From Vermamoeba vermiformis (taxonomy: Eukaryota): DNA of 64,000 nt. Below are positions 25,354 to 62,267 of this stretch, piece after piece (positions within the stretch are counted from its first letter, which is position 1; every line of letters begins with the position of its first letter). Position numbers and translations under genes: made by a program. Below the pieces are notes generated by a model. It saw only the letters and a list, made by a program, of their open reading frames with translations. It was not told where the DNA came from and did no database searches. The DNA lies in NCBI GenBank assembly GCA_045837725.1, contig JBEWZL010000069.1, positions 1 through 64,000 of the forward strand, read 5' to 3'.

Positions 25354-27448
25354 ATGGCAGGAATACCTACTCTTAGAACCGATGAAGCTATAAAGCGCTA
25401 TTGATGACGGAACGAGATTTAGAATTGGTGCAGAAGTGGAGCATTTGGAATTATCGACAGGTACCCTAATTACCAATTTATTTTTGGTTAAAAATACTAC
25501 TAATAGGAATTAATAGGAACAATAACCTGCCGTGCGTATGTTGAAGAAGCTTTAAGTAATAACACCTCCATCACCAGCTTGAAAATAAAGCACGCTTGGC
25601 ACACTGATCCGCAAAAAGTAGTGCCGCTTTTAGCTAGTGTGCAACACTCCAAAATTTTGCAAGAGCTTACCATAGTCAGTGAAAAAGACGAGATTTATGA
25701 CGCGCTAGGTGCTCTGCTAAAAGAGAATACTTCTATTAAGTCGCTCTCTATTACTGGTAAGTGGTGTAGTTTGAGAATTATAGACATTAATATTTTTCAG
25801 GTTTAGGCTACATGAAGAAATCGGAAGAATTTACCGCAGGTTTGGCAAGCAATTCGTCCTTGAAACTACTCGAGTTGCTTCCTTTTGCAAACCATAGCAT
25901 CGTAATGATAAACGAAAATTTTCGAAGAATTATCGCTGCGTTGCGGTTAAATCCAACAATTAAAAATTTATCAATCAAAAGTAAGTCACTCGTAACTATT
26001 CCTCTTGTTAATTCGTGAATAGGTGGCTCGGGAGAAGCTCGCTTCAGCATAACGCCCGACAGCACCCTGTCAGGTATGAACGCGCGAGTAGTATTATGTT
26101 TACTAACCCAAGTATCAGTTGCTCAGGCTCAGCGCGTATGCATCAGCATTGAACGAGAGGCACCCGCAGAAGAATTTCTCTTGTCTAGTAGTCCCGACTG
26201 GGAGGCGATGGCCAAGTTCTTGAAAGAGACCTGTCCTGCACGTATTACCGAAGGCCAGATCTACCCGCAAGATTGCAATTTGAGCAACAAGACTTTCGCG
26301 GACCAACTCGCCGTCCACTCAATTAGTCGACTGCTCAACGAAACGAAAGAGGAGACTAGTGCACTGGCATCCTCGCTCGCCGAAAAGAAGAAGAAATCCG
26401 AGTCTCTTGCTGCCAAACTGGACGAAGTACGAAGACAGCTTCTGGCATTGGAAACAGAACTGGGCCAAGTCAACGAGGAGATCAAATCGGAATCACACTC
26501 TTTAGCGGCAAAGAACTCTGCAGTGAACAACCTTCAAGCGAACTTGACCAGATTTCAAGCCTCGCTGAAGTCAAACGAACCAGCGTTAAAGAGATGGCAG
26601 CAGAAGTTGCAAACCGACCTCAGCACATGGAGTATTGAAGATGTGTCGCTCTTATTGGCAGAAGTTGGTTTGAACAGCTACGCACCAGTCTTTGCAACCA
26701 ACAATATTGATGGCTCAGCACTCGCGTGTCTTGACACCAATGATTTGATGACTCTTCGCCTGTCATTTGAAGACACCAAGAAGCTGCAAATGTACGTTCA
26801 CTTGGTTCAAACCCATCGCGATATCTACACGATACCTCCAGGAGTGCTGCAATGGAACAACGACACCGTGTGCACGTGGCTCGAAGACAACAAGTTTGGT
26901 CACTTGGTCGATGTCTTCAAGAAGAACCATGTACGTTAAATATTATTGTCGGTATAAGACCGATGTTAACATTGTGTTTCGTGTAGGTTACTGGTGTTGA
27001 ACTTGCATTCTTGGAGAAAGCGGATCTGACCAATCATTTGAAGATCGCTACTCTCGGCGACGTCGTTAAGCTTCAAAAAGAAAGCTCTAAGCTCAGAGAT
27101 TCGCTACGCAATGAACAAATCTTGGAACTGAAGGACAACAATAACGATCAACTAGCTCGTCAACTTGACGAAATGAAACGATTCAACGAAGAGCTCAAAT
27201 TAACTCTCAAACAACGTGAGACGAAGATACCCGAAGCGTTCATCTGTCCAATCACACAAGACATGATGCAAGAGCCAGTGGTCGCGAGTGACGGTCACAC
27301 GTACGAGAGAACAGCAATCGAACTGTGGCTGAAGAACAACAATACTTCTCCCATGACTGGTCTTCAATTGTCAAACAAACAACTCACTCCTTCGCACACT
27401 TTGAAGAGTATGATCCGCGAGTTCATTGACGCGAACAAGAAAAAATGA
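25354..27448 (+). CDS. LRR(RNI-like)-coiled coil-SAM-SAM-U-box E3 ligase, array copy A (apparent frameshift in exon 1)
   Basis: LRR-like ENTSIKSLSI; SAM motifs WSIEDVSLLL..VGL..Y..F..NNIDG and WNNDTVCTWL; U-box [35 protein letters not shown]. Exon 1 needs a frameshift near 25395 to match the paralogues. Confidence 0.8.
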
Positions 27449-27831
27449 AGTTTACAATACGAAAGGCCTCACCAATATTTGTTCAACAATAAACTGTAAT
27501 TCATGACGCTTAAAAAAATGAGGTGCCGATATTAATTGGCCAACCAAATCGAGACGTTCTTTCTTGTGGATTGCGTTGTCACGGAAGAGTTTTCTGTCAA
27601 ACAAGTTTCGGCGCCGCGCTAACGCAGTCAAATTCTGTAGATAGAGCAACCACGAGGCGATTTTGGAAAATACTCGAAAAGGTGTTCGCAGATCGCAAGT
27701 AGCTATTTCGCCCAAAATCAGCTCCTACCCAGCTTTGTAAATAATTACACCTTTTAATACAATAATATTTATTACTACAATTACGGCGAGAGAAGAATCA
27801 ATTCAATTTAAATCGTCAGTCAGTCTCGAAG

Positions 27832-30588
27832 ATGGCAATCCGTAATCCAGCAGCTGCGACTCCTCACGAGGCGCAATCAAATGCAGCCAAAAAATATTGC
27901 TTTGTTGAACAAAGCATGGTATGTATTATTTCTAAATATTTAATTGAAAAGGTAGATTCGAGCGATCTCCTCTCCTGGACACATTTGCAAATTGATACAA
28001 TATTAATTATTACAATTATATTTATTGATTATTTCAAATATATTTACATTACCATATTAATTATTATCCAAATTGCAGACACATCCCAAATTTTTGCACA
28101 GTAATTCAACAAGTCACATTTGGGCCTTCGGAGCAATAGCCGAACTCGTGGGTGCGTACTACTGAATATTACTATAGTTACGTAGCTAAAACATTGCACA
28201 GATAATGCGACAGATCCGGATGTTATGGCAACCAGATTTTGGATCGATGTCGAAGAAGAAAAAAACGGCCAACCTCGATTATGCTTCACCGATAATGGCT
28301 ACGGCATGGAAATCGATAAATTATACAAAATGCTGAGTTTTGGATATTGTGAGAAGGTACGTGACTGACTGACACGTATGGTGACTGACACGCGCGAATC
28401 CACTGCTTTTCGAATTTCAATTCCAAAGCTCTGTCTGGGGTTAAATTTACTTTATTATTAAAAACATGTCTAATTTCATAACCGTCAATGCAGGAAGAAG
28501 TCAATGGACATAAACCGATCGGTCACTACGGCAATGGATTCAAATCCGGTTCAATGCGTTTAGGCCGAGATGTAATCGTTTTTTCGAAATCAAAAAGTAC
28601 TTATAGCATTGGCATGTTGTCTCAAACCTTTTTATTCGCTGAAAATGCAACTTCAGTCCTCATTCCGATGGTTACGTGGGATGCGACTGGAAGTAAGTCC
28701 AATTAGAACACTGTTGCTACTTAAAAGTTGCTTACCGTTATATTTAGAGTGTCTTACAGAGCTTCAAGCTGCTGAGCAAAGTCTAGGTGCTATTCAAACC
28801 TACTCACCGTTCAAAACGATCCACGACATGATGAACAGATTCAAAAGAATACCTAATGGTACCAAGAGAGGCACTGGTACTCATATCGTTGTATATAATT
28901 TGCGAACAGTTGGTAAAGGTACGTATAATTAACTGGATCAACGTCAACAATAGCTAAAAATTTCAACAGAGCGGGATGCGCCATACGAGCTCGATTTTGA
29001 AACAGACCCATGTGATATTAGGATAGCCAATGTATTGGTAAGCGTTAAGGTCTTGGATATGCACCATATAATATGAATTCAGAGTCCTAAAGGCAAAAAG
29101 CTGCATTTCCAACAGCACCAAAATGGCCAGGGCACGCAGGTTAAAAGTCCGATTGATTTCTCGCTGCGAGTAAGTCTAGCAGTCCTATCTGCTTCTTTTG
29201 CAGCTAATGACACTATCTGCTATTAGGAATACTGTTCTATATTATATTCAAAGCCGAGAATAATTATCGTCTTGCGACGCACAAAGGTTCAACCAAAATT
29301 TGTAGATGCTTCACTTGCCAACCGTATGTTTGATGTTTATGTAAGTAACGGCTTTAATCTAAGCATATGAGCTTATATTTATTTCGCTACAAGACACTCC
29401 TTGGCACATTTCATTAATTTTTTTTGTATTGTAGAAAAACACGAGGATTACATTCGGCATGAACGTGGATAATCCTAATTTGTATGGCATCATGCTCTAC
29501 CACAGAAATCGCCTCATCAAACCATACTTGCGCGTCGGAATTCAAAATCAGATCAATCCAGATGCAGTTGGCGTCATTGGTATTATCGAGGCAGACTTCT
29601 TGCAACCGACGCATAATAAGCAAGACTTCGATATAAATACAAGAGTGTACAAGAACTGCATCCAGACACTCGCCACCAAGCTTGAGGCTTATTGGGAGTC
29701 ATACAAAAACAAATCTAGGTGGCAGCAAAAGCTACGCACTGACTTAGCTGACTGGAGCTCGGAAGACGTCCAGTTCTTGCTCTCTGAGATTGGACTCAAA
29801 GCGTACACCTCCGCTTTTGCAAGCCACAAGATTGACGGCGCCTTACTTTCAGCACTCGACACTTGTGATCTTACGTCAGCGAACCTCAAATTAACTTTTA
29901 AAGAAGCCAAACGTGTATTAATGTATGTCTATCTGGTTCAAGCACATCACGACATCTACACGATACCTCCGGGAGTGCTGCAATGGAACAACGACACCGT
30001 GTGCACGTGGCTGAAGGACAACAAGTTTGGTCACTTGGTCGATGTCTTTAGGAAACATCAGGTAAGTGAAATTTATTTAGACCACCAGTGCGATTGACTT
30101 GAGGTAAATAGATAACAGGAGCCGAGCTTGCTTTCTTGGAGAAAGTGGATCTAAACAATCACTTAAAAATTCAAGCTCTGGGCGACATCATTAAGCTGCA
30201 AAAAGAGATTTCGATACTTAAGAATTCGCTATCGAATGACCGTAGCTTGCAAAATCAACGCCAGAAAACCAATAACGTAAACAATGACTACGTTGCACGT
30301 CAACTCGAAGAGATGAAGCGATTCAACGAAGAGCTCAAACTGACTCTCAAACAACGTGAAACCAAAATACCTGAAGCGTTCATCTGCCCGATCATGCAAG
30401 ACATGATGCAAGAGCCAGTGGTCGCGAGTGACGGTCACACGTACGAGAGAACAGCAATCGAACTGTGGCTAAAGAGCGGCAACAGCTCTCCCGTGACAGG
30501 TCTTCAATTACCTAACAAACAACTCACACCTTCGCACACCTTGAAGAGTATGATCCGTGAGTTCATCGATGCCAAAAAGAAAAAGTAA
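27832..30588 (+). CDS. MORC GHKL-S5 ATPase fused to SAM-SAM-coiled coil-U-box
   Basis: MORC motifs as in the 1..1824 copy. Within one exon (ORF 29459..30097), [10 protein letters not shown]...LEAYW runs straight into WQQKLRTDLADWSSEDV (SAM). The last exon encodes the U-box. Confidence 0.87.
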
Positions 30589-30809
30589 CGAATGCACTTC
30601 GGTTATAAGATTTATCCTGCTCTCCACGCTTCTCCTTGCAAAAACCACCGTAAACCGTGAAACATTTCACTACTGCTTCTGCCACGCGTACCTTGGCACC
30701 TATTCTTTTGTGGAAAAGAATAGAATTCAATTTTGTGATTCATTTCAAAAAAGAAACACGACAAAACCGAACCATTCCAATTAATTTGATAACCCTACAA
30801 ACACTAGTG

Positions 30810-32955
30810 ATGGAAGCAATACCCACTCTTGGCACCGAGGCGGATATCAAAAACGCTATTACCCATGGCAAGCGTTTTAAAATTGCCTCATCAGTGAAGA
30901 GAATTGAGCTTTGGACAGGTAAATAAAATTTGAATAAAGGTTTTGATTAACCCTTAATTGCGGTAGAACAAATATTGAATCACTATTGCGTTGCGGATGC
31001 GCTGCAAGAAAACAATTCAATCACAGCAGTAAAACTAAACCACTCGTGGCAAACTCTTCCTACTAAATCGGCGCCTATTCTTGAAAGCTTACATGCATCA
31101 AAAGTCCTTCAAGAACTGGAAGTTGAGAGCAACAATGAGCGATTTTTTTCTTCTGTGGGAAATCTCTTAATGGAGAACTCGTCTCTTAAGTCCCTCTCGA
31201 TCATTGGTAAGTACTGTTTCGCTCTAGTAAATATGCTTATTTCAATTTGATAGGCTTCGGTTGCATGAACTCAGATCAGTTTTACAAGGGGCTGGAGGAT
31301 AATTCAAGCTTGGCTACGCTTGACGTAAGAACGTCAAGCTTGGCTACGCTTGACGTAAGAACGTTTGATAACTACAATCAGAGAGAAAAGATACACGACG
31401 ATTTCAAAAGAATTGTCGCTGCACTGCGGAAAAATCCTACCGTGTTGCGATTTGAAATTAGACGTGAGTTGAATTACTAATCATCTAATATTTAATCACT
31501 CTGATAATCCCTCTTTAGAGAATAATCCTAAATCCAAAAGTCTTGGATCCGTCGTATCTCCACACGCCGTTGTGACTGGTATGCAACTTAATACTTTCGA
31601 CTGCTGCTAACGGTTTCCAGACGATCTAGTGCACCTGTCCTTTCTAATCGAAAGAAGGTCCACAGACCAACTCGATGAACTCATTAGTAACTGCAATTGG
31701 GAACAGCTGGCCCAGTTTCTAAGAAGCAACTGCCAGACCGTACTCGTGAAAAAATTTTACTCTGAAGGACACAACTTGAGCACTAAAACCTTCGTAGATA
31801 AGCTGGCAATTCATGCGTTGCAGAAAATGGTAGAAGATGCGACCAACGAAAAGAACAAAATTCAATCCGAGACCGAGGAGAAACGCAAGCAGTTTTCGGC
31901 GCTAACCAAGAAACGCGACGAACTCCGAAAACAGCTGGATGGAGTCGAAGCAGATCTCATCAAAGTCGACTCGCAGATTCAGTCGAATAGCACGTTGCTA
32001 TCCGAGAAGAGCGCTGCCCAGCTGTTCCTTCGCGAAAATATGCAGGGCTTTGAAAATGCACTGAAGAAGAACGAGCCGGCTCTCAAGAAATGGCAGCAAA
32101 AGCTTCAAACGGACATTGGCACGTGGTCCTGTGAGGACGTGTCATTTTTGCTCACGGAGATTGGCCTTGGGAAATACTCGCAAGTCTTTGTGGCGAACAA
32201 AATTGATGGAACAGTGCTAAAAGCGCTCGAAACGAACGACTTGATATCGACTCTCGAAGTGTCTTTCAAAGAGGCCAAGAAACTTCTTATGTACGTGCAT
32301 CTAGTTCAAACCCAACACGACATATACGCAATACCTCCGGGAGTGCTACAATGGAACAACGACACCGTGTGCACGTGGCTGAAGGACAACAAGTTTGGTC
32401 ATCTCGTTGAAATATTCGTGAATCATCAGGTAGCGTTTGACATGTTAATACTACTCCTGTTAACCATACGCACAGATCTGTGGTGCGGAATTTGTCTTCC
32501 TAGAGAAGACAGAACTGACACGTCATTTGAAAATCCAAGCGCTTGGTGATGTTATTAAACTCCATTTGGAGATAGCGAAACTAAAGGACTCGCTAAAAGA
32601 CGAACACGGACTACAAGCACAACTTAAGACTGGCAACAGCAATGCAAGCAACAAGCAATTGGAGCGTCAACTCGAAGAGATGAAACGATTCAACGAAGAG
32701 CTGAAAAGCGCACTAAAGGAGAAGAAAACGAAGATACCTGAAGCGTTCATCTGCCCGATCACTCAGGACATGATGCAAGAGCCAGTGGTCGCGAGTGACG
32801 GTCACACGTACGAGAGAACAGCAATCGAACTGTGGTTGAAGAACAACAATACTTCTCCCATGACTGGCCTTCAATTGTCAAACAAACAGCTCACTCCTTC
32901 GCACACTTTGAAGAGTATGATCCGTGAGTTCATTGACGCTAACAAGAAAAAATAA
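30810..32955 (+). CDS. LRR-coiled coil-SAM-SAM-U-box E3 ligase, array copy B
   Basis: Starts MEAIPTLGTEADIK; LRR-like exons; same SAM and U-box motifs as copy A. Confidence 0.85.
31304..31363 (+). repeat. Perfect 2 x 30-bp in-frame tandem duplication (SSLATLDVRT x2) in the LRR region
   Basis: tcaagcttggctacgcttgacgtaagaacg occurs twice in tandem. Confidence 0.95.
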
Positions 32956-33124
32956 GCAACGTAACGATGCACCCGCATTACGGAATAATCATCATTTTTA
33001 TGATAACGATTAATAAATTACATTCTAGATCTATTCTTTGGAGAATTGGATCAAAATTTGTGTTTCTTGCCAATCAACCATTTTTCTGATCGCGTTACAA
33101 AGCAAGACTACAAGCAGTGTAAAT

Positions 33125-35224
33125 ATGATTAACACAAAAAACGACGTTGCAAGCCCAAGGAAGAAACGCAAAATAGGATCGGATGTAAAAAGTGTGGAAA
33201 TTGACCCGGGTAATTATTAATCATAATTATTTTGGCAAAAGAATTATTAATATTCGAAATTAATCAGGACCCCGCACTAATTTTCTCTACCTGGAAGAGG
33301 CTCTGCAAAATAATAAGTCACTGACGGATGTGACGATTCTCGCTGGCGGCGGCAGGAAATTCCAAACCGAATCTCTTGCTTTAATCCATTCACTTAATCA
33401 ATCAAAAACCCTTATTAGTCTTACTGTTGAATTTGGAGACCACCTCATTCTTACACCTCCGATCAGCACTTTTCTGCGACAAAACTCGTCAATTAAAACC
33501 CTAAATCTCGATGGTACTATCGCAAATATTTCTTTATAATTTCTAATATTATAAATTAGGTGTAATTGTACCCTCTTACGCAACACAACTTTTGGATGGG
33601 CTGGCTGCAAATTCTAGCTTGACCGAACTGACCCTGAATATAACCAGTGCCTACGGTCAATTCGAGTTTGAGAAGAAACTCAAGGAAGCACTTCTGAATC
33701 ACGGGAATATAACAAAATTTACTAAACGGGGTAAGAATTTCTGATCTCGGTCGATCTGTTTCTGATGAATGTTTCGCAGGGCACCAAAATGATAATTCAA
33801 TAGGTAGGTACAACTTAGACTAAACAATTATAATACCAACGTATTCTTAGTGACGCATACGGAGTTTTCCATTGAGCGAACGCTGTTCAAAGACAATCAG
33901 TTATGCACCATCGAAAATTTTATAAAGAGCAGCAATTGGGAAGAGCTGGCGAAATATTTGCAACAACATTGTGGCGAACACGTGATTCCAGAAATTTATC
34001 CGAGCGACCTTAGTTTAAGCACCAAAACATTCATCGATAACCTTGCCATTCATTCACTGAAAGGTTTGTTCCAAGAATCGCAGAAACGAGGCGCTACATT
34101 GCAAGGGCAGCTCGATGCCAATAATAGGACCATTGCTGGATTAAATAAGGAACGAAATGAATTACAACGAAAACTTAACGAGGTCGAATCAAGGATGAGA
34201 GCCGTAAACACAAATATACAAAAACAATCACGAGAATTGACTGACAGTACTCGTGTTCAAGAAAATCTTGCAACGAATATCCGTAATTTTCAAGCGTCGC
34301 TAAAGAAAAATGAACCAGCACTCAAAAAGTGGCAAAAACGCTTCAAACTGACTTTGCTACTTGGTCCAAGGACGATATAACGTTATTACTGAAAGAGACA
34401 GGCCTTGCACGATACTGTGGCTCCTTCCTGTCAAACAACATTGACGGCACGGTACTTCTGCAGCTCGAAACAAATGACCTGATCTCCGCTCTTGAGGTCT
34501 CATTCAAAGACGCCAAGAAGCTCTTGATGTATATACATTTGATCCAAACCCATCGCGATATCTACACGATACCTCCGGGAGTGCTGCAATGGAATAGCGA
34601 CACCGTGTGCACGTGGCTCGAAGACAACAAGTTTGGTCACTTGGTCGATGTCTTCAAGAAGAACAAGGTATGCGAAATACATTTAGGTCCCGAGCACGTG
34701 CTAATATAAAGGTATGATAGATCACAGGAGCAGATCTTGCGTTCTTGGAGAAAGCGGATCTGATCGGTCAACTACGGATCAAAAAAATTGGTGACGTAAT
34801 CAAACTTCAAAAAGAGATTTTGAGGCTAAAAGAATCAATACTAGACGACCGAAAGTTGCCAAATCAAAACATAGTCAACAATAATAACAACGTGGCTAAT
34901 AGTCAACTCGAACACCAACTGGAGGAGATGAAACGATTCAACAAGGAGCTGAAAATTGCACTTAAAGAGAAGAAAACGAAGATTCCTGAAGCGTTCATTT
35001 GCCCGATCACACAAGATATCATGAACGACCCTGTCTTCGCGAGTGACGGTCACACGTACGAGAGAACAGCAATCGAACTGTGGCTGAAGAACAACAATAC
35101 TTCTCCCATGACTGGTCTTCAATTGTCAAACAAGCAACTCACACCGTCACACACTTTGAAGAGTATGATCCGCGAGTTCATTGACGCGAATAAAAAAAAT
35201 GAATTATTACACTACCAAATGTAA
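33125..35224 (+). CDS. LRR-coiled coil-SAM-SAM-U-box E3 ligase, array copy C (two 1-nt losses in A-runs)
   Basis: Same architecture as copies A and B. Frameshifts near 34335 (caaaaa) and 35195 (A8) relative to the paralogues could be sequencing errors. Confidence 0.8.
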
Positions 35225-36681
35225 AACCGCAAATCACACCCGTGATTTTTGTCCCAAATCACGGAGTATCTCGTGTGATGTAAATTTATCACGCAAGATT
35301 CTACTCACGGCGTGAGGCAGCAGCTTTTGATACATACAATAGCACCTATGTATCATTTCAATATCAACACACGAAGTTTAAATTAAATTGTATCTTTATT
35401 TTTGTTCACACATTAACGATGAGATTATTAAGTATATGACATACGGTTGGACTTCAACATCGCATTTATTGCAGCAGAAATTTCATTCCAGTTAAGTCCA
35501 CTGCGTTGAATCAGGCTTAACTGGAGATTTCGCTTCCGACCTAACACGTTGCGCGTTGCCTAAGAAAAATGTATCAAATTATATATTTATTAATTTATTG
35601 ATGTGGATTATAGAAGATTTTACCTTGAAGGTCAAATCCATTTCGCAGATTAACACATCCAGTTCGCTGCCTAGAACAAAAATTTAAAAAAAGATAATTG
35701 TAATTGCAAACTTACCTTTAGTAGTAAGATATCATCGCCAAAATATTTTGAGACATTTCTTAACAAATAAAATTAAATTAATGTTCGTAATTTATTAATA
35801 TTAAAATTGATCTGGTCCGTAATTACTTACATTTGGTATCGCTGACACTCATAGAATAAAATATCTTACGTTCATTTGATATTGTCTGCATCACAGATGC
35901 AAGAAGCAATTAGATGAGTTTTTAAATTCGAAATTAATTACATACCACAGTTCATTTGCACTAATTATTAGTGAATTAAAGAGGTAATATTGCTAACATG
36001 CAGCTCTTTGTGGTGAAGTGTTGTTTAGTTTAATTTAATTTTTTCTTTGCTGCAGTTAAGCCCGCTACAGCGCAGCTGACTTAACGGGAAATTTCATCGG
36101 TCTCAATATCCTGCGGTTTGGTGGCTTTCAACAAATAAATTGCATTCTATAATAAAAACAAATACTATTAATATTAAGTGCTAGAATTGTCCTTACTTAT
36201 TACACTGTTGCCGGCACTGCACAGCTATGCATCATTTATCGCAGTGCTTGGTGCCACGGTGTGGAAATAAATCACTAGAGATCACGTGCCGAGATCACTG
36301 AGAGAATATAATCTCGGCGAGTTTCCGGGTTGCTACTTTTGGTAGTGTAAATGAAACTACCGAGGCAAGAATACTAAAAGTTCACAATTGTGATTTGCGG
36401 GGGAGAATTGGTTTTACAACTTTAATACCGCTCTAATTATATCTCCGAGCTGCACAATAATTGGCTTAATTACTCAATGCGGAAAGCTAGTCGTAATTAC
36501 TAAACTGCTTTGTGGTGCAGATCAGTTCGTTTTTCAAACTCAATTCAATTTTTCAATTGAACAACACAATACTTTCAATGGAAGATATTCCTTGTCTGAA
36601 CAATGATCAAGATATAAAAAGGGCTTATTTCGCAGGAACCCGCTTTAAAATTGCGCCGTCGATAACTCATCTGGATGTGTG

Positions 36682-36726
36682 ATCGGAAGGTATTGTAAAA
36701 ACCCATTTGGGTGTATTTCATTTATT
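36682..36726 (+). repeat. Left terminal inverted repeat
   Basis: atcggaaggtattgtaaaaacccatttgggtgtatttcatttatt. Confidence 0.9.
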
Positions 36727-36805
36727 CTTTGTGTGTAAAGTTTTCTTTTGCTTTTCTATTGTTCTTCAGTTTATTAGGCAGAATTAGCTAACACCAGAAT
36801 AAATA

Positions 36806-38246
36806 TCAAAGTTTGTTTGCAAGTAAGAAGGCAGTACGGAATGAGCTGTCTGCCTCTGCTTGCTGCTGTTGTTGTAGAATTGTCATGAACTGGGCCTGTT
36901 GCTGTGCCATAGAGTGTCTGTGCTGCATTTGCTGCAACTCCAGTATACTTTGGAGATATTGGTTGCTTGCATTGTTTGCAGTATTCAACACAGAAGTGGG
37001 AACTGGGCTGGGTGTCAATCCTGTAGTTTGAGGACTCAAGTGGACAGCTGGAACTCCAACTAATTCAGTTGTGTTAGTGGCAGCAGTGGGTGCAGCTTGC
37101 GGTGGTGGGAGCTTTGGTAATGTTGGCTTGTGAATGGACTTTGTCTTGTTCTTAAGTGGGATAACTTCATCTTCTGACTCTGATGGAGAAAAACTTTGCA
37201 ATTGTCGTCGTTTGACCAAAGAAGGCTCTACTACAGCAATAGGTCTCTTCTGATCTTTAGCAACAAGTCCCTTGCTTGCTCCTGTAAACGTCTTTGTCAA
37301 AACCTATCGGTAATAGAATTTGCTACCTTTTTTGCTTGGCGCAGCTGGCTTTACCAGTGTTCTTGAGGCATGTACTGGCTGGGTCCTAGAAGCCTTTTTT
37401 GCTGGCTCTGTTTTCACAGTAGGTTTTGGAGAGACTTTTCTAGTCTGGACAACGTAAATAAATAGGGTTATTTTGTTTCTGACATACCTTTGCTGCATAA
37501 TAAGCCTTAAACAATTCATCCAGGCACTCCTTTTGACTATTGCTAGCTTTGCCTTCAACTGACTTGACATCACTGAACTTGACTTCAATTACAGATTTAA
37601 GGGAAGGATCTGCAAGGAGAACCTTGTTGAATTGCTTATTGCGAATGATGAATAGCACTGTATGCAAGCCAATGACATTTTTTACAACCACTGTATCTCC
37701 AACTTCGACAGCAAAGTCATCCATCCGCCGAGTCACTTTATAATAATAATTGCCATTCCAAGGCTCTCCATGGTACTTGTAGAACTCAGTATATACCTCT
37801 AAATCAGCAACAAGTCAGAGTTGATCCAACAATGCCTTATTACTTACCTTTGTCATCGGCAGAGTTCAGCCCGCGGAAGGAAGATTTTTCTTCTTGGACA
37901 GTGTCATTGCTTACTATAATTGATTTATGTATGAGTAACACTTACAATAATAAATTAATATGTACCTTCATTATTGGAGTTACCAATAGGAATTTTGGTT
38001 TGCCGATCAGGATCGAGGGACTCAATTTTTTCTTCTAGCCATTAAAAATTAGTTTCCTTATAAATAAAGAGACATCATAATGTTGGGAAAATTATAGAAT
38101 AATTAAGAGAGTTAATTACCAGCTATTAATGATTCCCGAGTGGATTTTGGACTGGGCGGGGGATTTTGCTTTGGCTGCTGGGCTTCACTGTCAACTGATG
38201 CAGCAGTAGGGTTGTCAATTAATACCTTGTCAGTATCCTCACTCAT
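36806..38246 (-). CDS. Transposon accessory gene, unknown; central beta-rich segment (BAH/Tudor-like start), P/T- and Q-rich C-terminus
   Basis: Six exons splice in frame from ATG 38246 (MSEDTDKV) via EVYTEFYKYHGEPWNGNYYYKVTRRMDDFAVEVGDTVVVK to the stop at 36806. Confidence 0.6.
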
Positions 38247-39093
38247 TGTGGTGTTCATGTAATGATTTCCGAGGACAATTGGATTTGGTTACCCATAAAA
38301 GGAAATTAACCAGGGCACTTGCTACGGAGAAGTTATTTGACCATTATTTCATTCCAATAATACCATTAAACAACACCTATAGTTCAAATCACCTATTATA
38401 TACCTCATACAACACATCATTATCAAGGCAACTCAATGGATTCAAAACTAATGTAAGTCAAGGTGGATTTAACTTTACATCTTGCTCGGAAATTATTACA
38501 TATGAAGACATATATCAATTTATAATTATATATGCATTACAATAATTTAAATATGCTAGTTTAATGGCTATTTTGAATTTTTGAGGAGAAAATTGATGGC
38601 ATAATTTCATATCCAGCTCGGAAATTGTTAGGTATCAACATAATACATAATAATAACATATGTATGCTGCTTATATTATATATATCCCATATCTATCATT
38701 TTGGGGCTGATCATTGCATATTCAAAAAGCCTATTATCTGTTCTGTCTCGTGCACCAGTCAAATCCTTGCCGTAAGAGGGTTTTCAATCTATAGTATCAT
38801 TACTAATTAACCAAATTGTTTCAAACATGGTGTATGCATTTGTACATATACAATGAGCAATACTAAAGCTTTGATATATATTTTAAAGATAGTTTTGCTA
38901 GTTCAGTTCTGCCGATCTAGATCAGACAAGATCCACTACTCATGAGTAAAAGAGAATTGAAGTAACTCCTATCCCTATTCATTGTGCTTACAATTATTTA
39001 TGCTATTAGTAATGGCAGTAGCTGGACTATTGAGTTAATGCAAGTAAAGTTCTCTCAGGTCATCTTTGTTGACAATTTCTGTGCCTTACCCAG

Positions 39094-39389
39094 ACTTTGC
39101 CGAACTCTATTAAGTATATATATGGTATTACAATACCTCATGTAGTTTATGTATGCAATTGATTTTGGTAAGAAAAATCATGATTGCCCAACACTGGTGT
39201 AACGTAACTTTAACTTCAACTTCGTGTGCAGCACGACTTTGCCGAACTCAACTAAATATAATGCTGGCAGTTATTCATTGCATCTAATATATATATAGCA
39301 CTGTTATGGCTAGCTAAAATCGTAGGGGTTCACAGTGGTGCGCATCAACCCTCTTGCTGCTGACGTAAAACAGCACTACTTTGCCGAAC
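39094..39389 (+). repeat. Three copies of ACTTTGCCGAAC at an exact 142-bp period
   Basis: Copies start at 39094, 39236 and 39378; the intervening sequence is dissimilar. Confidence 0.7.
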
Positions 39390-39504
39390 GACTCTTACTA
39401 TTCTATGCTATTGATCATCATATAATGATACAAAATTGACCAACAATATAGATTTTAAAAATCACTATTCATGTGCAGTTCATTAATACTGTTACTTCAG
39501 GAAA

Positions 39505-42500
39505 ATGACATTCCAAGGCTTTCAATGGGGCTCTAACAGTAAGTTAAGCACTATTAATAGAATGACCTAACAATGGTAGATATGAATGACCTATGCACTA
39601 TTGAGACAGTTGGCTTCGTTCTTCGGCTAGTGCTGCAAAAATTGCCAGGACACAAGTTTGAGAGTGACTTTTTTAAACTATTGACGGGTTGGATTAATAA
39701 TGGACCACTATCCAATGAAAGGCTACACCAATTAAAATTGGATCTGATAGATGCCCTTGGTCCTGTTGTAGGCTGGGTGCCTTGCAAGACTTATGTCTCA
39801 ATTGGTGCAATACTCACGGCAGCTTTCAAAACTCTGTCAATTGCCGAATCAGCATTATTTGTCTCTACTCTTAAAGTTGTTAGCCACTGCAAATGTCCTA
39901 CAACAACAAAGCTATTTCATCAAGTGGCAGTTTTTGTTGAAGAAAAACTGACTGACAGTACACTCTCACTCCAAGCTGCACTCAACCACTTAGCAGACTA
40001 CAACTGCCAGCTACCCATCAACTGCTATGATTGTGGAATACAACCTGTTGAACATCGTAAGTTCAATTAGAAGAAATGAATTTGATATTAAACTGTGTAG
40101 GTACATTGGAGTTGCCACAAGTTTTGACTGTCGAGTTAGGAAGACTCAAAAGGCAATTTAGCAACCCAAATATAACCATCGAGCCAGTTTTAACTGTCAA
40201 CAATTGTCAGTATTACCTATTAGCTGTAATGATGTGCCCCACACTACATGCTATTTTGTGCAACAGTCAGTCTTGTATTTCTATGATGGCATGCAAAATG
40301 AAGGAATTGCCACTCCAGTGGCAGAAACACTTGAAACAAGCAAATCTAAGATATATTATGACCACATTGTGTACTTAAAACGACAGGTAATTTAACCTGG
40401 TTTAGTTCTTCTAAGCATTAACTCTTGGTAGAATTCTGCACCTGTTTCGAAAGCCATCAATGCAAAAGACCTATTTACTACCTTGCAAGTGCAGCCAGAA
40501 AGTACCCCAATTGCCTCGCAGAATCTGTTCCAAGTCCTAACAAAGAATATCATTCCATCTGAAAAACTCAAGTCATTAAAAAAACAAAAGTTACTTGGGG
40601 CTGATTCAATTAACAAAGGTACTTATAACTTGCAAATTTTACATCTAACTAACATTTTCCAGTTGCAGCTACAAACTGTTGTAAGGCTAGATGTACTGAA
40701 CTCTTCACTACCAGCCAGATTCTGGAAAGCCGCAAGATGGTGGCTGAGCTCAATGACAGTCAGAAAACTAAGTGGCTGATGAAATTTTTTGAAACAAACA
40801 TGAACATTGATAGCCCAGCTGTTGCTTTCCTGGTAGGAGGTGTATCAGTTTGTCAGCTTGCATTTTGCAGAGTTTATGGAGTGTCTGTCGACAAGGTTAT
40901 TCAATGCAAGCAACAATACCTAAATGGAACAAAGGCTCATATGCATGGTAATTGCTTTCGGGTGTATGACTCCCCAAAGAGAGACTCAGTAGCCGCTTGG
41001 ATCCAAAACTATTGCAATACATATGGTGATTATGTGCCAACTAAAGATGAAATTCACTTACCATCACACATGACGTAAGTTCTTGTTCTGATACTGTGAT
41101 TGCTAACCAATGCAAGTGTGAAGGAATGGTACAATCTGTTTTCTGGTGAATTTGCCAATCTTCACCCAGGAGCTGACACACCAAGCTATGAAACTTTCAA
41201 GCAGGTCAAGCGCAAATGGTTTGCAGTAAGTTACTATGTGCATCTTTCAATTTTGCTAAAGATTTTAGAATGTTAAACGCCCGAAGGAGACTCGACTTGG
41301 CAAATGTTCAACCTGTTTATTGATTAAACAACGGCGACTACAGTGCCCTTCAGAAGATAAGCTGTTGCAATTGAAACAGCAGATGAATGAACACATAGAT
41401 TATATTACAAAGGACAGACAGATGTATCGGCAAAGAGCAGATATTGCCATTAAGCAACCCTTCTTGAAGATGAGCATCATTACAGACAAAAGTGGCAGTT
41501 TTCAACTTCCTCAGCACCATCCAATGCCAAAAGAATGGGCGAATATTAACCTTTTGCAAGCAAGCTTTGTAGGCTTCATTAACCACGGGCTGAACAAGAA
41601 AGAGTTAGTGTTTTTCAAGGAGTCTGATTACATTGCAGATGCAGACTTTTACATCTCACTCCTGTTCCATCATTTGAAAGAATCTTTGCTATCAATTCAA
41701 CCACAAAATAGACCGACAACACTGTATTTACAAGTAGATAACAGTGCAGCTGAAGGCAAAAATCAATATTTGCTTCAATTTGCAGCATTACTAGTGCACA
41801 ATGAGTGGTTTGAAGAGGTTTTCATTCATTATTTACAACCTGGCCACACACATGAAGATATTGACCGACTATTTCAACCATTTCATACTTACTTCCAATG
41901 GAAAGTTATTGAAACTATGAATGATGCTATTACATTTGCAAAGTCAATCTATCCCAAGGATGTGTATATTCATGAACTCCAATGGCCCATTCTTTCCTGG
42001 AAAAAGTGGTTTCTCACATTCTGCTCATCAATGAGTGGTCACAAAGACAAATATGCTTTTTGGCTAAAGAAAGGACTTGATGGCACTCCAACACTCCTGT
42101 TCAAACAAAAATCTCTCGATGAAAATTGGATTGAAGTTGAAGAATCAGTGTTTAGTCATTCTCCGTCAGCCGAACCTGTAGCACTTCAACCAAACCCTGT
42201 GTCCAAGGAGTTGATAGCCACAATAGTGACAAAGACCTCTAAATTTCTTTCTGAAAAGGTGAGGATTGTACTTTACTATTCAGTTACTAACATGTTGCAG
42301 GGCATCGAATATTACAAAGGTCTGGAGAGAACAGAAGAGGTGAAAGTTATGACAGAATTGTTCCAGATTGGCCAAGTTAAACGTGAAGGACCAGAGCTTG
42401 TGGTCTCATCAGAAAAAGAACCAACAATGGTCAATTTAAAGAAGCGCAAACGGCAGGTTGAAGGTACCTTCAAATCATAGGTTTATTCTTAATTGTTACT

Positions 42501-42697
42501 CATTTTTGTTTGCAGATGAGGCAGAATGGGTAGTTAAAAGTATTATAGACCACCGAAAAGTTGGACGTAAGTTAGAGTGGCTGGTACTTTGGGACGGAGG
42601 ACAACAGTCCTGGGAGCCACGTAATTGCTTCATAGATGCAGACCAAAGCAAGAATGAAGTATGGGCTGACTATGAAAAGAAGAGATTGAGCAAATGA
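39505..42697 (+). CDS. USP-like cysteine peptidase - Sola-type transposase - chromodomain fusion (one frameshift near 40230)
   Basis: USP-like boxes: GFQWGSNNMNDLCTIE, CYDC..LELPQVLTVELGR, YYLLAV, PHTTCYF..FYDG. Transposase: CCKARC, VCQLAFCRVYGVS, HGN, IHLP, KCSTC, LYLQVDNSAAEGKN, GHTHEDIDRLF. Spliced (42464..42515) to a chromodomain EWVVKSIIDHRKVGRKLEWLVLWDG..SWEP. Confidence 0.75.
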
Positions 42698-42705
42698 TAG
42701 TCTAA

Positions 42706-42750
42706 AATAAATGAAATATACCCAACTGGGTTTTTACAATACCTTTCGAT
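42706..42750 (-). repeat. Right terminal inverted repeat
   Basis: Reverse complement reads atcgaaaggtattgtaaaaacccagttgggtatatttcatttatt. Confidence 0.9.
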
Positions 42751-45649
42751 TGTGGCCGTCAGAAGGTTTCAAGTTTAGTAAATAATTTAGATAATTTTTA
42801 ATGAATATAACATAGGCAACAACGAATATTTCATCGAAGCCCTACGAGGAAATACTTCACTGCGGGTTATAAAATTCAATCGCTCTTTCTTTACAAAACC
42901 GCAATCAATAGCGTCATTAATTACCGCACTAAAAACATCCAATACATTAGAAGATTTGACGATAGAAAACAGTGCAAAAGAAATTTACGAGGCAGTGGTG
43001 CAGCTTTTGAAAGAGAACACATCCATCAAAACTCTTACTTTAACGGGTACGCCTCTTCGTTGGAAATTATGTAATATAACGGATCCTTGTAGTTGATAGT
43101 GCGGTCGTGGGAATTTTAGCTAGCGGACTAACGGAAAATCGAACCCTGATCCACATCAATCTGCTCGCAAGCTTTGGCTTGGCAGAACTACCACATGTTT
43201 CGAAACATTCAAGCCTATAGTCGAAGCGTTACAAAATTCCCCTACAGTTAAAAAAGTTTTAATTCGAAGTAAGAAACTCTACAACCTAAGCGTAAAAAAG
43301 TAACCCACGTTGCTAGGACAAAACGAAGAACCATATCGCGAAATTTATCCGAACGAATGCATCACATGTACGTAGTCAATGACTTATTAGACACTCTCGT
43401 AACATTTCTTCAGTGGAACGGGCCACAAAGCTGTCAATCTTGATCGAAAGGAAAGGACAAAGCCCCGCACAGTTAATTGCAAATAAGAAATGGGACGAGC
43501 TTGCTTCGTACATCAAAGACCATAGCACGGAATATCTAGCCTTTAACTTGCACTACTCTTGCCAGGTCGATTTAAGCACCAAGACGTTTATCGACTCCTT
43601 AGCTATTCAGTCTTTGCAGCCGTTGTTGGAAGAAATGCGGACGAAAAACAACGAGGCTGAAGTCGCTTTAGACGTCACAAAAATTGAGTGTCAATCGCTG
43701 ACCGAACAACGAGACAAATTACGAAAGCAGCTTGCTGACGTTGAAATCAAACTGGCAAAAGTCACCGCACAAGTCAAATCAGACGCAAAAGACTTGGAAG
43801 ATCGTAAATGAGCTGAACAAGATTTACAAATCAATCTGCAGGTGTTTCAAGCTTCACTAAGGACGAACGAACCCGCGCTTCAGAAATGGCAGAAAAAACT
43901 TCAAGTAGATATTGCTGAATGGAGCTGCGAGGACGTGTTATTCATGCTAACTGACATTGGACTGCAAAAATATTCAACTTCATTTTCGGCGAACAAAATT
44001 GACGGCGCAGTGCTTTTGACACTTGACGCGAGCGATTTGACAGCCACTCTGGAGCTATCTTTCAAAGACGCTAAGAAGCTCCAAATGTACATTTACTTGG
44101 TTCAAACTCATCACGACATCTACACGATACCTCCGGGAGTGCTGCAATGGAACAACGACACCGTGTGCACGTGGCTCGAAGACAACAAGTTTGGTCACTT
44201 GGTCGATGTTTTTAGGAAGCATCAGGCAAGTTACTATAGCTGTTGTAGATTCTACTCGGTCCTAACTCTATGTTTGTTAGATAACTGGCGCTGAACTAGC
44301 ATTTTTGGAAAAGTTGGATCTGACACACCACCTTCAAGTCAAAGCACTTGGTGACGTCGTAAAATTGCAGAAAGAGATTGCAATACTTAAAGACTCCCTG
44401 TCTGATACACAAGCTTTAGTTAGGGCCAATACGAACAACAACAAACAATCCGCCAAAGTCAATGACAAACCAGCACAAGATGAACATAAACATGAAGATC
44501 ACAAGGAACAATTTGCACCAGTACCGGAGTTCAAGGGCTTTGACTCAGTGCTTTCGTTTGGGTTTAGTCCCAGCCGACAAGGAGCCGGCCCTTCTTTTGC
44601 CAGCACCTCTTTGTTTTTTCCTGCCCCAAGTAACAATGATGCGACTAAACTCGGTCAACAAGAGAAAACTTCTACACCAGTTGCATCGCCGGTCCAATTC
44701 GGATTCAGTTTCGCTCCTATTGCAAACCCATTCGGAGCAAGTTTTGGTACTCAAAATTCCGTTGCAAATCCTTTGCCACAACTGCAACCGAAGCAGATCT
44801 CGCAAGGAAACTCAGTTGCATCGTCTGTCCAATTCGGATTTAGCTTCGCTCCTGTTGCAAATTCGCCATTTGGATCTAGTTTTGGTACTCAAAGTCACGT
44901 TGTGAATTCTGCTACTCAACCACAGCCAAAGCAGCTCTCCGTAGACAACTCGGAAGTAAAGATACGACACTTCTCGGTGCCTGAAACTGACCATGACGAA
45001 GAAAGCGATAGAGACGCCAATAAGCAAGTGAAATCGACTCCGCCTCCTTTGCCCTTGTTAGGAGAACCTGCACAAAACAACGAGAAAGAGCCAACGGTTG
45101 CCGATCGAACAACGCAATCGAATGCAAACGAAGAAGAAACTGAAGAAGCAGCCATATGTCCCATCACCCATGACGTGATGAAGGATCCAGTGGTCGCGAG
45201 TGACGGTCACACGTACGAGAGAACAGCAATCGAACTGTGGCTGAAGAACAACAATACTTCTCCCATGACTGGTCTTCAATTGTCAAACAAACAACTGACG
45301 CCAGCACAGAAGTTGGATCCGAACAAGAAAAAATAAGAGTTGCGTTTCTTTAGAAATATGAGCACCAATAAACCTTTTTTTTGTTGTCTTCGTTGACACG
45401 ATTCAAGGAAATTCATTGTTTCTGTGGTTGACGGATGCACTTGTTACGAGACTCGATTGAACCAAATTTTTCGTTCGCGTCTCTACTTTAGAAAAAGCTT
45501 CCGACATCGTTAAATAGTTATTTTGCAAGCTATATTTGTTAAAGCGTGCAAACTCCGTTGTGAACTCAGCCCAGATTTTCCGCGTGTCACTTTTTGTCTT
45601 TTGACTTTCTTGCCGTTGTATTACATAGTTATTACGTCACAGCTCAACC

Positions 45650-53010: not shown

Positions 53011-56000
53011 TTATATGCTGATTTGTTTCGTGGATCGTCGAGTCTTTGGTGGAGCAGCTGTGCTTGCTTGCGTAGGAGGAGATTGTTGAAAAGCGACCTT
53101 AAATACCTCATCATAATGAGATACGTAATGAACTTCAAGGTCCCTCTTAATATAGTCGGGCAACTCTTCAAAATCTTTCTTGTTGTTGGTAGGGAAGATC
53201 AAGGTGGTTACACCGGATCTCTTAGCAGCAATTGTCTTTTCCTTAACACCACCTAAATAGCATATTAGAATTTCTTCATAAACTGGCTGCGACTAAGTGT
53301 GTTCAGGCGAAATCTAGATCGCGTGATCCGCGCACTTATGATGTCTTACCAATAGGCAGGACTTTGCCAGTGATAGTGACTTCACCAGTCATAGCGAGAT
53401 CCTTCTTGACTGGTTTGTTAAGAGCCAAAGAGAGCAATGAAGTGACCATTGTAATGCCTGCAGAAGGTCCATCTTTAGGTGTCGCGCCAGCAGGAATGTG
53501 CATGTGCATTGAGGCCTAGATACGTCATATTAGCTCGAGTACGGTGTTGATGGTAAGATCTACTTACTGTTTCGAAGAAGCGGTTGGCAGGATTGTGTCG
53601 CAGCAAGTGAGCCTTGGCGTAAGTGTACGCGATCTCGGAGCTTTCTTTCATGACTTCACCCATCTTGCCTGTCCTTCGCAAACCAGGCTTGCTGCCGAAC
53701 TTATCTACACTCGATTCGACGTATAAAGTAGCGCCACCCATCTCGGTCCAGGCCAAACCCATGACAACACCAAGAGGTGTCTCTTCGAAGAATCTGTCTG
53801 TGCTGAAGGCAGGCTTGCCGACGTACTTCTGTAAGTTTTCTTTGGTGATAACCACGTGATCAGTTTCGCCTTGAACGATCTGCAAAGCGACTTTACGGAA
53901 TATCTTTTCAATCTTTTGTTGAAGGTTTCTAACACCAGCTTCACGGCAATAAGATTGGATCAATTCTTGGGCTGCCATTGGAGTGACAGTGACTTGTTCG
54001 GGCTTCAAACCAGTCTCTTTCAACGTGGTAGGAATCAAGTACCTACAGTAATTAATTAGTACGGCTTATTACGAGAAGCGAGTGATGTCAACTTACTTGT
54101 TCAAAATCTCCATCTTTTCTTCGAGCACGTAGCCGCTCAAACGAATTACCTCCATACGGTCAAGCAATGGTCCAGGAATCGTGTCTTGAAGATTGGCCGT
54201 GCAAATGAAGAGCACCTTTGACAGGTCATAAGGAACGTCCATGTAGTGGTCCAAGAAACCAGAGTTTTGTTCCGGATCCAACACTTCAAGCAAAGCTGAT
54301 GAAGGGTCTCCTCGCCAGTGCTTGGTCATCTTATCAATCTCGTCGATCAGAATGACAGGATTTGATGTTTGAGTGCGCTTGAGGGCTTGAATGATCTTGC
54401 CGGGCATAGCTCCAACATAGGTACGACGATGACCCTTGATTTCAGCCACGTCGTTCATTCCACCGACAGAGAAGCGATAGAACTCACGACCTAAGCTGCG
54501 TGCAATTGACTTGCCAATGCTGGTCTTACCAACGCCAGGCGGGCCGACCAATAAAATGATCTTGCCTTGCACTGAGTTCTTCATAGCACCGACTGCGATG
54601 AACTGCAAGATCTTCTCCTTGACATGTTGCAAGCCATAGTGATCTTCATCGAGGATCGTTTCGGCCTTCAACAAGTCAAACGACTCTTGAGAGTACACGC
54701 CCCAAGGAATGTTCGTCAACCAATCCAAGTAGTTCTTGGTCACGTGGAACTCGACAGACGATTGTTCCAAATTGCTCAATTTGGTCTAAAAACCATACAT
54801 TAGTTTCAGTCATTTTAGCCAAGATTTAACCAACGTACCATTTCGTCATTGATGACAGTCATCGCGTGCTCGGGCACGGTGTACTTTGCAAGTCTTTCCT
54901 TGAACTTGGCAATAACTTTGCTCTTCTCATCGCCCTTAGCACCGAGTTCGCCCTTAATGACCTTGATTCGCTCGCTGGCCTGGAACTTTCTGTTTGTCTC
55001 GCTCAATTGGTGCTTGACTTTCCTGCACGCGAAAAAAATGTTAGCCTGTATACCTAGAAATAGTATCTAAAGCAAACGTACTCTGAGACTTCGTGGTCCG
55101 TATGAATCAGCTCGTATTTGAACTTGACGAATCTAAGCGCCAGCTCCAATCTCTCCTTCAAATTGTTGCACTCCAAAATTTCAATTAATTTATCGGCGTT
55201 CGAGGGGTGAGGCATAGCAGAGGCAATAACTTCAGGGATGATGAATGAAGTGTTTGCTGGTTCTTTGAACAAAGTTTCTCGGTCGGGAATGAACAACAAG
55301 CGAGACATACTATAATAAGCAAGTATAAGCATTATGCAATAATGAATGGATATGCGATTAAACTTACACTGCGCCCTCGCGTTTTAAGGTTTCCACGATC
55401 TTGTTGTACGTGAAAATCAACTCGAAACTGTAGGCCTTGATAGTCTCGTCAGCAGAGTCTACAGGATCGTCTTCGAAGGGCACAATGTTCACGTGCATCG
55501 TGGTGTCGTTAGGGTGACGCACGACGGAAGTGGCTTTAATGCGCGAATGGGACATGAACATCACTTGCGCGTATTTCTCGCCCAAGGTAATGTCCTTAAT
55601 CTCTGCTAATACTCCGACTTTGCGAATTTGATTTAACTGCGTTGGGTTCGCTGGACTATCTCTCGCCGTCATTAAGAACAATCCTACTTTAGTTCCGTCA
55701 CGCTTGATTTTTTTCAAGGCGTCCAAATGCATCACATCATAGCTCAACACTTTGATGCCTAATTTTACATAAAATTAGTTTATGATTTATAAATTGAGAT
55801 TTTTGTCCTTTGCATACCATTGGGATAAATAGGCACGTCCGATAAAGGCAATACGGCAACTTTTTTAGGCACTGTCACTGGTTTTTTGCCTGCGTATTGT
55901 CCCGATGTTTGAATTGTTTCTTCGGCTTCTTCAGCTTCAAGAACTTCATCATTGTTATTGTGCTTAGAATTTGCGATAAATCTACGGTCCTATATTAAAA

Positions 56001-62094: not shown

Positions 62095-62267
62095 ATCGTT
62101 GTGGTAAAGATATATTAAATAATAAAGAATAAAGTTTGACGTTTCAACTTTTTTTTTGGCCGAGCAACGTTGTCAAAATTTGGTCGCCGTTAGTTTTGTT
62201 CTTTCGTTTTTAGCGGATCCCACAGGAGAACGAAGAAGACCATATATATTATAGCTCCTAATCAGCA

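Follow-up and report, generated by a model that had tools for sequence, protein, structure and literature searches.

What does a gene encode that appears to join a protease-like domain, a transposase and a chromodomain, and is its product a single protein of a mobile element? The question is raised by positions 39505–42697 (+) of a 64,000-nt stretch of Vermamoeba vermiformis DNA (positions 1–64,000 of contig JBEWZL010000069.1, assembly GCA_045837725.1), here called the window, which is eukaryotic DNA with a G+C content of ca. 40 %. An earlier interpretation of these letters (the sequence-only reading) had proposed a Sola-like transposase fused to a chromodomain and to a domain resembling ubiquitin-specific proteases (USPs). 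Our analysis makes it likely that this region represents the transposase gene in a two-gene transposon that is complete and has terminal inverted repeats (TIRs), and that it specifies a four-part enzyme containing a chromodomain and a domain similar to USPs and ubiquitin carboxyl-terminal hydrolases (UCH).

The element, its transposase and its copies

Positions 39505–42697 hold the transposase gene of a DNA transposon of class II (cut-and-paste type), which is complete, 6,069 bp long and located at 36682–42750. The element is bounded by TIRs of 45 nt, the left one at 36682–36726 (+, starting ATCGGAAGGTATTG) and the right one at 42706–42750 (−), which are 93 % complementary and differ at 3 of 45 positions; this was the top pair among the 20 inverted repeats listed, the next best being of at most 27 nt. 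The sequence TGTG directly abuts both TIRs on their outer side (36678–36681 and 42751–42754), constituting a 4-bp target-site duplication (TSD). These TIRs with their TSD, and the occurrence of the same ends at multiple loci, place the element among the class II TIR transposons.

The transposase gene and a second gene, designated gene A (36806–38258, −; six exons, 390 aa, intact), diverge from the centre of the element. Each stops just before an AATAAA within its own TIR, on the minus strand just past the end of gene A in the left repeat and downstream of the transposase stop codon in the right one, and these were the only poly(A) signals noted in the element. The region of ca. 1.2 kb between both genes (38259–39504) presumably carries divergent promoters. 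Just upstream of the transposase start it contains three copies of a 19-nt motif (..GACTTTGCCGAAC), at 39087–39105, 39229–39247 and 39371–39389, with an exact spacing of 142 nt, which could be promoter elements or internal transposase-binding sites. Tandem Repeats Finder detected no tandem array in this region, the 142-nt units being too diverged outside the 19-nt motif, and an Rfam search of positions 36000–43500 produced no match.

The transposase gene extends from an ATG at 39505 to a stop codon at 42695–42697 and comprises nine exons, whose open reading frames (ORFs) are joined in phase by eight GT-AG introns of 41–52 nt. The intact transposase is a single spliced protein of ca. 949 aa with four parts: a peptidase-like N-terminal domain, a Cys-rich region, a core matching DUF7869 and a chromodomain. 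The Cys-rich region (CCKARC...) is encoded by exons 5 and 6 (40663–41074 and 41117–41225), is common to the distant homologs P0001 and P0010, and is probably involved in DNA binding. Between these parts, exon 4 (40432–40618) encodes a poorly conserved linker, with 58 % aa identity to the metagenomic copy L004 (see below), and in the gene model exon 8 (42301–42463) encodes a linker whose basic KKRKR stretch is a possible nuclear localization signal.

The core is encoded by exon 7 (41269–42258), which matches Pfam family DUF7869 (PF25273) with an E value of 7.9e-39 and 133.7 bits, against a cut-off of 26, over profile positions 2–190 of 192 (ca. 41533–42114 in the window). Residues D73, D157 and D199 of exon 7, in the motifs S.I.D (ITD), LYLQ.DN (QVDN) and HTH..ID (HTHEDID), were invariant in the five sequences aligned, i.e., the window, two close relatives, and P0001 and P0010, with 29–32 % identity; we infer that they form a catalytic D-D-D triad. 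A tblastn search of a phage collection with the core found no match. P0001 and P0010 consist of the Cys-rich region and the core only, lacking both the N-terminal domain and the chromodomain, these two domains thus being later additions in the lineage of the element.

Sola elements reportedly have DDD transposases and 4-bp target duplications (Bao, Jurka, Kapitonov and Jurka, 2009). The designation of the transposase as Sola-like is plausible from the presence here of these two traits. In common with Sola, the element shows cut-and-paste organization, TIRs, a 4-bp target duplication and three invariant Asp residues. In Repbase, Sola forms a superfamily divided into Sola1, Sola2 and Sola3 (PMC4455052); Sola1 elements have a mean length of 5,445 bp (PMC10294476), and our element, of ca. 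6 kb, is within the reported range. Sola cores matched no Pfam family in a 2017 survey (PMC5751038), whereas the core of this element corresponds to DUF7869, a newer family. Neither Sola-labeled sequences, nor GHTHEDID-type strings, nor the HTH motifs searched were found in the portion of the PMC3985635 supplement that was available. In the literature searched, which lacks most subscription journals, no Sola member with a peptidase-like domain or a chromodomain turned up, and no paper mentioned DUF7869. With this element, a Pfam domain without assigned function gains a biological home, since it serves as catalytic core in a TIR transposon whose target duplication is of 4 bp.

Parts of the gene were present in 20 public sequencing runs from 13 studies, including DNA runs of the source organism and metagenomes from aquifer, water, soil and biofilm, with no RNA run listed among them, and four runs were compared over positions 36500–42900. 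In a DNA run of the organism (X2) we found 653 contig pieces, with identities of at least 99 % (414 pieces), 95–99 % (198) or 90–95 % (41); the depth was 3,000–14,000 inside the element versus ca. 627 on the left flank, although depth does not equal copy number. In one contig from this run, one contig from an aquifer metagenome (X3) and locus L004, the sequence runs out of the element precisely at 42750/42751 and continues into three different and unrelated flanks.

The JGI/ENA metagenome collection contains seven loci with relatives of exon 2, of which L001 to L006, with 68–78 % identity on this exon, were analyzed. L004 carries the whole gene, from the N-terminal exons through the core to a chromodomain exon whose protein identity is 92 %, and ends in the same terminus (ATCGAAAGG...). 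L001 and L002 represent a more distant lineage, containing the N-terminal domain and the core, in contigs that end ahead of the last exon, whereas L003, L005 and L006 show gene A and the central region arranged as in the window.

Some of these loci have additional particularities. L001 (1340–1378) and L002 (99–137) contain CTG in place of the start codon; the core of L001 (3123–4139) has RHTHKDID instead of GHTHEDID, with an intact N-terminal domain, and L002 stops short of the core. The two loci appear to be copies in decay. In L005, an inverted pair of the terminal repeats of the element, ca. 1.1 kb apart (1243–2335), lies beside a partial full-length copy; it is flanked by ACTA and ACTT, which match at three of four positions, and is probably a non-autonomous derivative akin to the miniature transposable elements with inverted repeats known as MITEs.

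The N-terminal domain

Exons 1 to 3 (39505–39538, 39580–40056 and 40101–40386; +) encode a domain of ca. 265 aa with residues conserved across lineages. Its recognizable features are, in order, a G..N....C box at the junction of exons 1 and 2, CxC, CxxC, LPQVL..L.R, Y.LLAV, H, YDG and YDH.VY..R, with 11 residues separating CxxC from LP.VL..L.R. Their order and spacing match the boxes of USPs, in which a Cys box, a His box and Asp/Asn succeed each other with the zinc ribbon of the fingers in between; a candidate for each is present, in a pattern that was picked post hoc and has no associated statistic. Every lineage with coverage of the positions concerned retains the candidate Cys, the four putative zinc cysteines of CxC and CxxC, the His and the Asp of YDG. 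All the motifs that the sequence-only reading had cited along the protein, namely NDLCTIE, the zinc-ribbon cysteines (in HCKC and NCYDC), LPQVL, H...YDG, DN..EGKN and GHTHEDID, are indeed present.

In a language-model feature search of ESM-Atlas with the intact exon 3 from L004, the best match scored 0.95 and had 196 of 256 features in common (recognition 2665). Fourteen of the 30 matches belonged to a set bearing UCH (PF00443), with a giant-virus cluster that is 98 % UCH in third position and a cluster that is 100 % UCH in ninth, and the ten best family-bearing matches all agreed on one family or clan. In calibration, a shuffled protein attains a score of 0.95 about once in 100, and chance matches rarely reach 170 shared features. 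The N-terminal domain is probably most like the USP/UCH deubiquitinases, its candidate triad being Cys-His-Asp and its putative zinc site CxC...CxxC, and we favor, with some reserve, a USP-type fold for it.

A number of results weigh against this assignment. With profile and structure tests that were run on unspliced pieces, one exon at a time, no UCH or UCH_1 match was obtained in Pfam, even at E values up to 10, for the exon 2 and 3 pieces of the window, L001 and L004; at E ≤1, six of the eight ORF pieces, including all the N-terminal ones, were devoid of any family. Likewise, no USP was retrieved from PDB with exons 2 or 3 or with profiles of either, and ESM-Atlas returned nothing for exon 2. 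A phmmer search with exon 2 against 1.84 billion proteins identified only three close fragments and one spurious protein, the latter a repeat-rich sequence of 2,716 aa (P0005, E 8.6e-4) that was discarded. AlphaFold modeled exon 2, from a four-row alignment, with a predicted local distance difference test score (pLDDT) of 50.4, too poor to use, and Foldseek found no PDB match to this model at E ≤0.001, its top rows being helical bundles with E values around 1. A second model, of L004:1195–1833 read through an in-frame intron of 54 nt, with X at two stops and a six-row alignment, had a pLDDT of 36.8. Additionally, L001 shows Gly instead of Asn five residues before the candidate Cys, and LS for the LP of LPQVL. 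The fold check proposed for this domain hence neither modeled nor displaced a papain/USP fold.

There are also reasons to ask if the element needs this domain. The lesions of several copies fall in it: besides that of the window, L003 and L004 share a 1-nt deletion in exon 2, L003 has a further stop in exon 3, and in L005 and L006 exon 2 is interrupted by a stop. Together with the distant homologs, in which the peptidase-like domain is missing, this means that the element may be able to do without it. To judge from depth alone, natural copies damaged in this domain seem to have multiplied, which bears on whether it is required in cis.

The strongest competing explanation, which we regard as somewhat unlikely, is that the N-terminal domain is a lineage-specific zinc-binding domain, acting in end binding, multimerization or regulation, whose USP-like motifs arose by chance or convergence. 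It would be in agreement with the absence of USPs from every hidden Markov model (HMM) and profile search result and with two unusable AlphaFold models, which for all their low confidence render the first 100–140 residues as entirely helical. It would also fit a family that has very few close relatives in a pool of billions of proteins, and the known frequency with which a shuffled sequence equals the top Atlas score. However, the Atlas match shares 196 features, well into a range that chance rarely approaches, and its best family-bearing hits converge on one family or clan. Furthermore, six USP-like motifs occur in canonical order and spacing, with the candidate Cys, His and Asp and the four zinc cysteines kept in all lineages, and the low-confidence model of L004 contains a strand-strand-strand-helix-strand succession, the order expected around the His box of USPs. 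The USP-like N-terminus originally proposed is thus partly supported, with conservation of the motif order and of the candidate residues and a language-model match to UCH, whereas it was recognized by no HMM.

A probable single protein with a broken frame

The sequence-only reading considered the three domains part of one spliced gene, and this was corroborated: a protein with an N-terminus containing Cys, His, Asp and a zinc-ribbon-like motif, a DDD core and a chromodomain recurs in the diverged L004, L003 and L001. Intron donors are GT in 8 of 8 cases in L004 and in 7 of 7 in L001, with intron lengths that drift, as introns should, between 39 and 50 nt; acceptors are AG, as aligned, in 7 of 8 and 6 of 7 cases, respectively, both exceptions being alignment slips.

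Purifying selection acts on all parts as well. We estimated the ratio of nonsynonymous to synonymous substitution rates (dN/dS) by the Nei-Gojobori method between the window and L004, where dS was 0.6–1.4 and the values are consequently approximate, which tempers the argument; against L001, dS was saturated. The N-terminal domain had a ratio of 0.11 (264 codons, 76 % aa identity), the core one of 0.04 (330 codons) and the chromodomain one of 0.06 (60 codons), compared to 0.23 for the Cys-rich region and 0.23 and 0.32 for the linkers, the first of these being that of exon 4. The low ratios of the N-terminal domain and the chromodomain indicate that both were kept by selection as parts of the element. 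Given that diverged metagenomic copies repeat the three-part architecture and the intron positions, and that the N-terminal domain shows this low dN/dS (0.11), the fusion is genuine and has been subject to selection.

It is nonetheless conceivable, if improbable, that exons 1–4, with the peptidase-like domain, and exons 5–9, with the transposase, are two adjacent genes. The single transcript is inferred from splice logic, a point that counts against our reading, and no RNA support was obtained for the junction of exons 4 and 5: two RNA-seq runs labeled with this species yielded no reads and one partial read, respectively, on 36500–42900, and are uninformative on expression and splicing. Moreover, P0001 and P0010 lack the N-terminal domain although they are transposases in full, and copies in which this domain is broken seem to have multiplied. 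On the other hand, exons 4 and 5 are in phase through a GT-AG intron of 44 nt that is conserved in L004 and L001, and exon 4 has no terminating stop codon. Exon 5 begins with V(A/T)AT.CCKARC in three lineages, with no Met ahead of the conserved Cys cluster, which indicates that it depends on the upstream exons, and the poly(A) signals noted are restricted to the TIRs. We therefore hold a single protein to be the probable product of the gene.

The spliced length of the window copy, 2,840 nt (2 mod 3), implies exactly one frame break, located in exon 3. A single frameshift had already been noticed near 40230 and it is real, although comparison with intact relatives moves it to 40237/40238 and shows it to be a deletion of 7 nt. 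In L004 and L001, exon 3 reads in one frame as ...Y.LLAV..C.GSHTTCYF...Y.YDG...YDH.VY..R, whereas the window lacks three residues, x-G-S/A. The intact form was also found in the aquifer metagenome, where one contig of ca. 99 % identity to the window carries an additional 7 nt inserted behind 40237 (8.54 of 8.54 depth); these supply the missing codons and bring the length to 2,847 nt.

At the same position, the DNA run of the organism shows the 7 nt in 0 of 3,801 depth and the form of the window in ca. 3,329 of 3,801, with the remaining 472 due to one contig that has lost a further base. Since the window form appears in an independent DNA run of the organism, the frame break is real and not an assembly slip, and the 7-nt deletion seems to be common to several copies. 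Contig-based counts can hide rare variants, and intact copies may exist elsewhere. The copy in the window is, in any case, dead, because the deletion shifts the frame inside the peptidase-like domain.

Two further explanations are improbable. That the frameshift is an assembly error, and the window copy intact and autonomous, would be congruent with ca. 2.2 kb of downstream sequence that remains open across six introns and with TIRs that are nearly identical; it is contradicted by the independent DNA run, even allowing for rare variants dropping out, and we consider it a shade less probable than the existence of two genes. Lastly, strong purifying selection on all domains and a multi-exon structure might be expected from a host gene domesticated from a transposase and no longer mobile, an idea that is scarcely credible in view of the TIRs, the TSD, the interrupted host exon, the many diverged copies with different flanks, the short MITE-like element of L005, which shares these ends, and the independent inactivating lesions in most copies.

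Chromodomain, insertion site and parallels in other elements

Exon 9 (42516–42697) encodes the chromodomain and the stop codon. Among the PDB sequence matches at E ≤1, 26 of 30 were chromodomains of HP1/CBX, CDY or cpSRP43 proteins, the best being CBX1 with an E value of 4.6e-4, and the other four were Ycf48-like. As the sequence-only reading had stated, two of the three aromatic residues of the cage are present: in the alignment the first two positions are Trp and the third is Gly, and L004 is alike. The identity of the C-terminal domain as a chromodomain is therefore well supported by sequence comparison. To be set against it are a match to the Pfam Chromo family (PF00385) of E 0.012 and 15.9 bits, under the curated cut-off of 25.1 (15.7 bits for the L004 exon), and the incomplete cage, in which the third aromatic is missing. 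Besides, the single insertion examined lies in a gene exon, unlike what would be expected from targeting to heterochromatin.

With these parts, the transposase could operate as follows. The core and the Cys-rich region would bind the inverted repeats and perform excision and integration, with the RNase-H-type DUF7869 core cutting and rejoining the ends of the element. The chromodomain would tether the enzyme to modified histone tails, biasing its landing sites, and the peptidase-like domain might strip ubiquitin, or a modifier resembling it, either off the transposase or off chromatin or repair factors present where transposition takes place. The earlier suggestion that ubiquitin would be stripped to resist silencing is pure speculation.

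A bolder proposal, which we find doubtful, is that this is a recently active family whose single DDD transposase bears a "reader plus eraser" module, made up of a chromodomain reading histone marks and a working USP-class deubiquitinase. If so, the enzyme, tethered to marked chromatin, would deubiquitinate histones, repair factors or itself, opening the site or escaping degradation. This would be a new route by which a DNA transposon deals with the chromatin of its host and with control through ubiquitin, and its peptidase would stand for a novel USP lineage, so divergent that current profiles miss it.

Proteases of the ubiquitin system are known from other transposons; an extra domain of this sort is uncommon in a mobile element but has precedents. 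They include Ginger1 transposases with OTU or Ulp1, Mutator-like elements (MULEs) with Ulp1, and a Trichomonas vaginalis protein combining transposase_11 and Peptidase C19 (PMC2836005). All these join, as our element would if its N-terminal domain is a peptidase, a DDE/D transposase and a papain-type protease of the ubiquitin system in one protein, and the T. vaginalis fusion involves the very peptidase class proposed for our element (C19/USP). Nevertheless, their proteases are recognized by standard profiles and, in Ginger1, are C-terminal (PMC2836005), whereas the domain in the window is N-terminal and too divergent for HMMs; the window protein also differs in its transposase family and in having a chromodomain.

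Helitron and Helentron elements likewise stably carry domains of the deubiquitinase type (VTD, OTU, UCH; PMC9741609, PMC11417382), and UCH is one of 20 such stable passengers in Helitron-like elements (PMC11417382). The VTD domains of zebrafish Helentrons are active deubiquitinases, and the authors suggest that they shield transposition proteins from degradation (PMC9741609). However, these are rolling-circle elements with a RepHel protein (PMC9741609, PMC11417382), as opposed to a DDD cut-and-paste element, and the active site of VTD has Asp-x-His (PMC9741609), whereas the candidate residues of the window domain are in the order Cys...His...Asp, as in USPs.

In turn, a C-terminal chromodomain is found on another DNA-inserting enzyme, the integrase of chromoviruses (PMC6839031, PMC12477816), and chromodomains on integrases of long terminal repeat (LTR) elements steer integration to heterochromatin (Gao et al., 2008, as cited in PMC6839031 and PMC12477816). 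The enzyme of chromoviruses is a retroviral-type integrase and not a DUF7869 transposase, and the chromodomain of the window differs in lacking the third cage aromatic.

The sequence-only reading was unaware of any similar three-part combination, and we found no transposase joining a ubiquitin-system protease and a chromodomain in the literature searched. Transposon-borne ubiquitin-system proteases and chromodomain targeting are thus already known, and it is their combination and the transposase family that are new. Transposons repeatedly acquire proteases of the ubiquitin system (Ulp1, OTU, VTD, UCH), and this element offers a tractable case for their role in transposition: it is of 6 kb, with known ends, a near-intact gene and natural intact variants. 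Its chromodomain, on a cut-and-paste transposase, would allow chromatin-directed integration to be tested outside retroelements, which could be of interest for targeted insertion tools.

The element is inserted in a host gene at 42755–45333 (+) that encodes leucine-rich repeats (LRR), a coiled coil, SAM and a U-box, and whose upstream exon ends at 36681. When the element and one TGTG are removed, the reconstructed empty site has an open host frame, reading ...SITHLDV|WPSE, followed by a GT donor and leading into the LRR ORF at 42791. Insertion therefore split a coding exon, knocking out one paralog of a host LRR-SAM-U-box array. The presence of a ubiquitin-ligase array around the element, noted from the sequence, was confirmed by five U-box ORFs (E values from 4e-22 to 6e-14), each with a SAM ORF ahead of it, the interrupted gene being the fifth member. 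The significance given to this location was not supported, and it looks coincidental: three other copies have unrelated flanks, for which reason we rejected a target preference for ubiquitin-ligase genes. The tetramers on the right flank vary across copies (TGTG, ATTT, AGTT and AGAT), indicating that there is no TTAA preference either.

With respect to gene A, it contains five GT-AG introns of 43–85 nt and specifies one globular domain of ca. 105 aa followed by a long, low-complexity Q-rich tail. It did not show any significant match in Pfam, with weak hits under the cut-off to VRR_NUC (E 0.031) and LpqV (E 0.0041), nor any match in PDB. Its eight relatives are all close (66–98 %), and it is kept in L006 with 61–71 % aa identity. 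A direct repeat at 37748 and 39503 was considered as a duplicated start and ruled out, gene A being on the opposite strand.

The host array consists of at least five tandem paralogs with coiled coil, SAM and U-box, at 26019–35221 and 43383–45333; one of them includes a MORC S5-like domain (29435–30094), and the interrupted fifth gene has an LRR N-terminus. Elsewhere in the window, long ORFs at 16682–18319 (546 aa) and 2721–3914 (398 aa) have no Pfam family at E ≤0.001. Other host genes code for a Lon protease with substrate-binding, AAA and S16 domains (53478–55774, −), a subtilase (14978–16194, +), a trypsin-like peptidase (11274–11861, −), a SNF2-family ATPase (3890–4324, +) and NOG1 (62262–62681, +). 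Finally, the left host flank of the element (36552–36629) exists in the DNA run of the organism as a second haplotype, with eight substitutions and one 1-nt deletion in less than 80 nt, at a depth of 409 out of 627.

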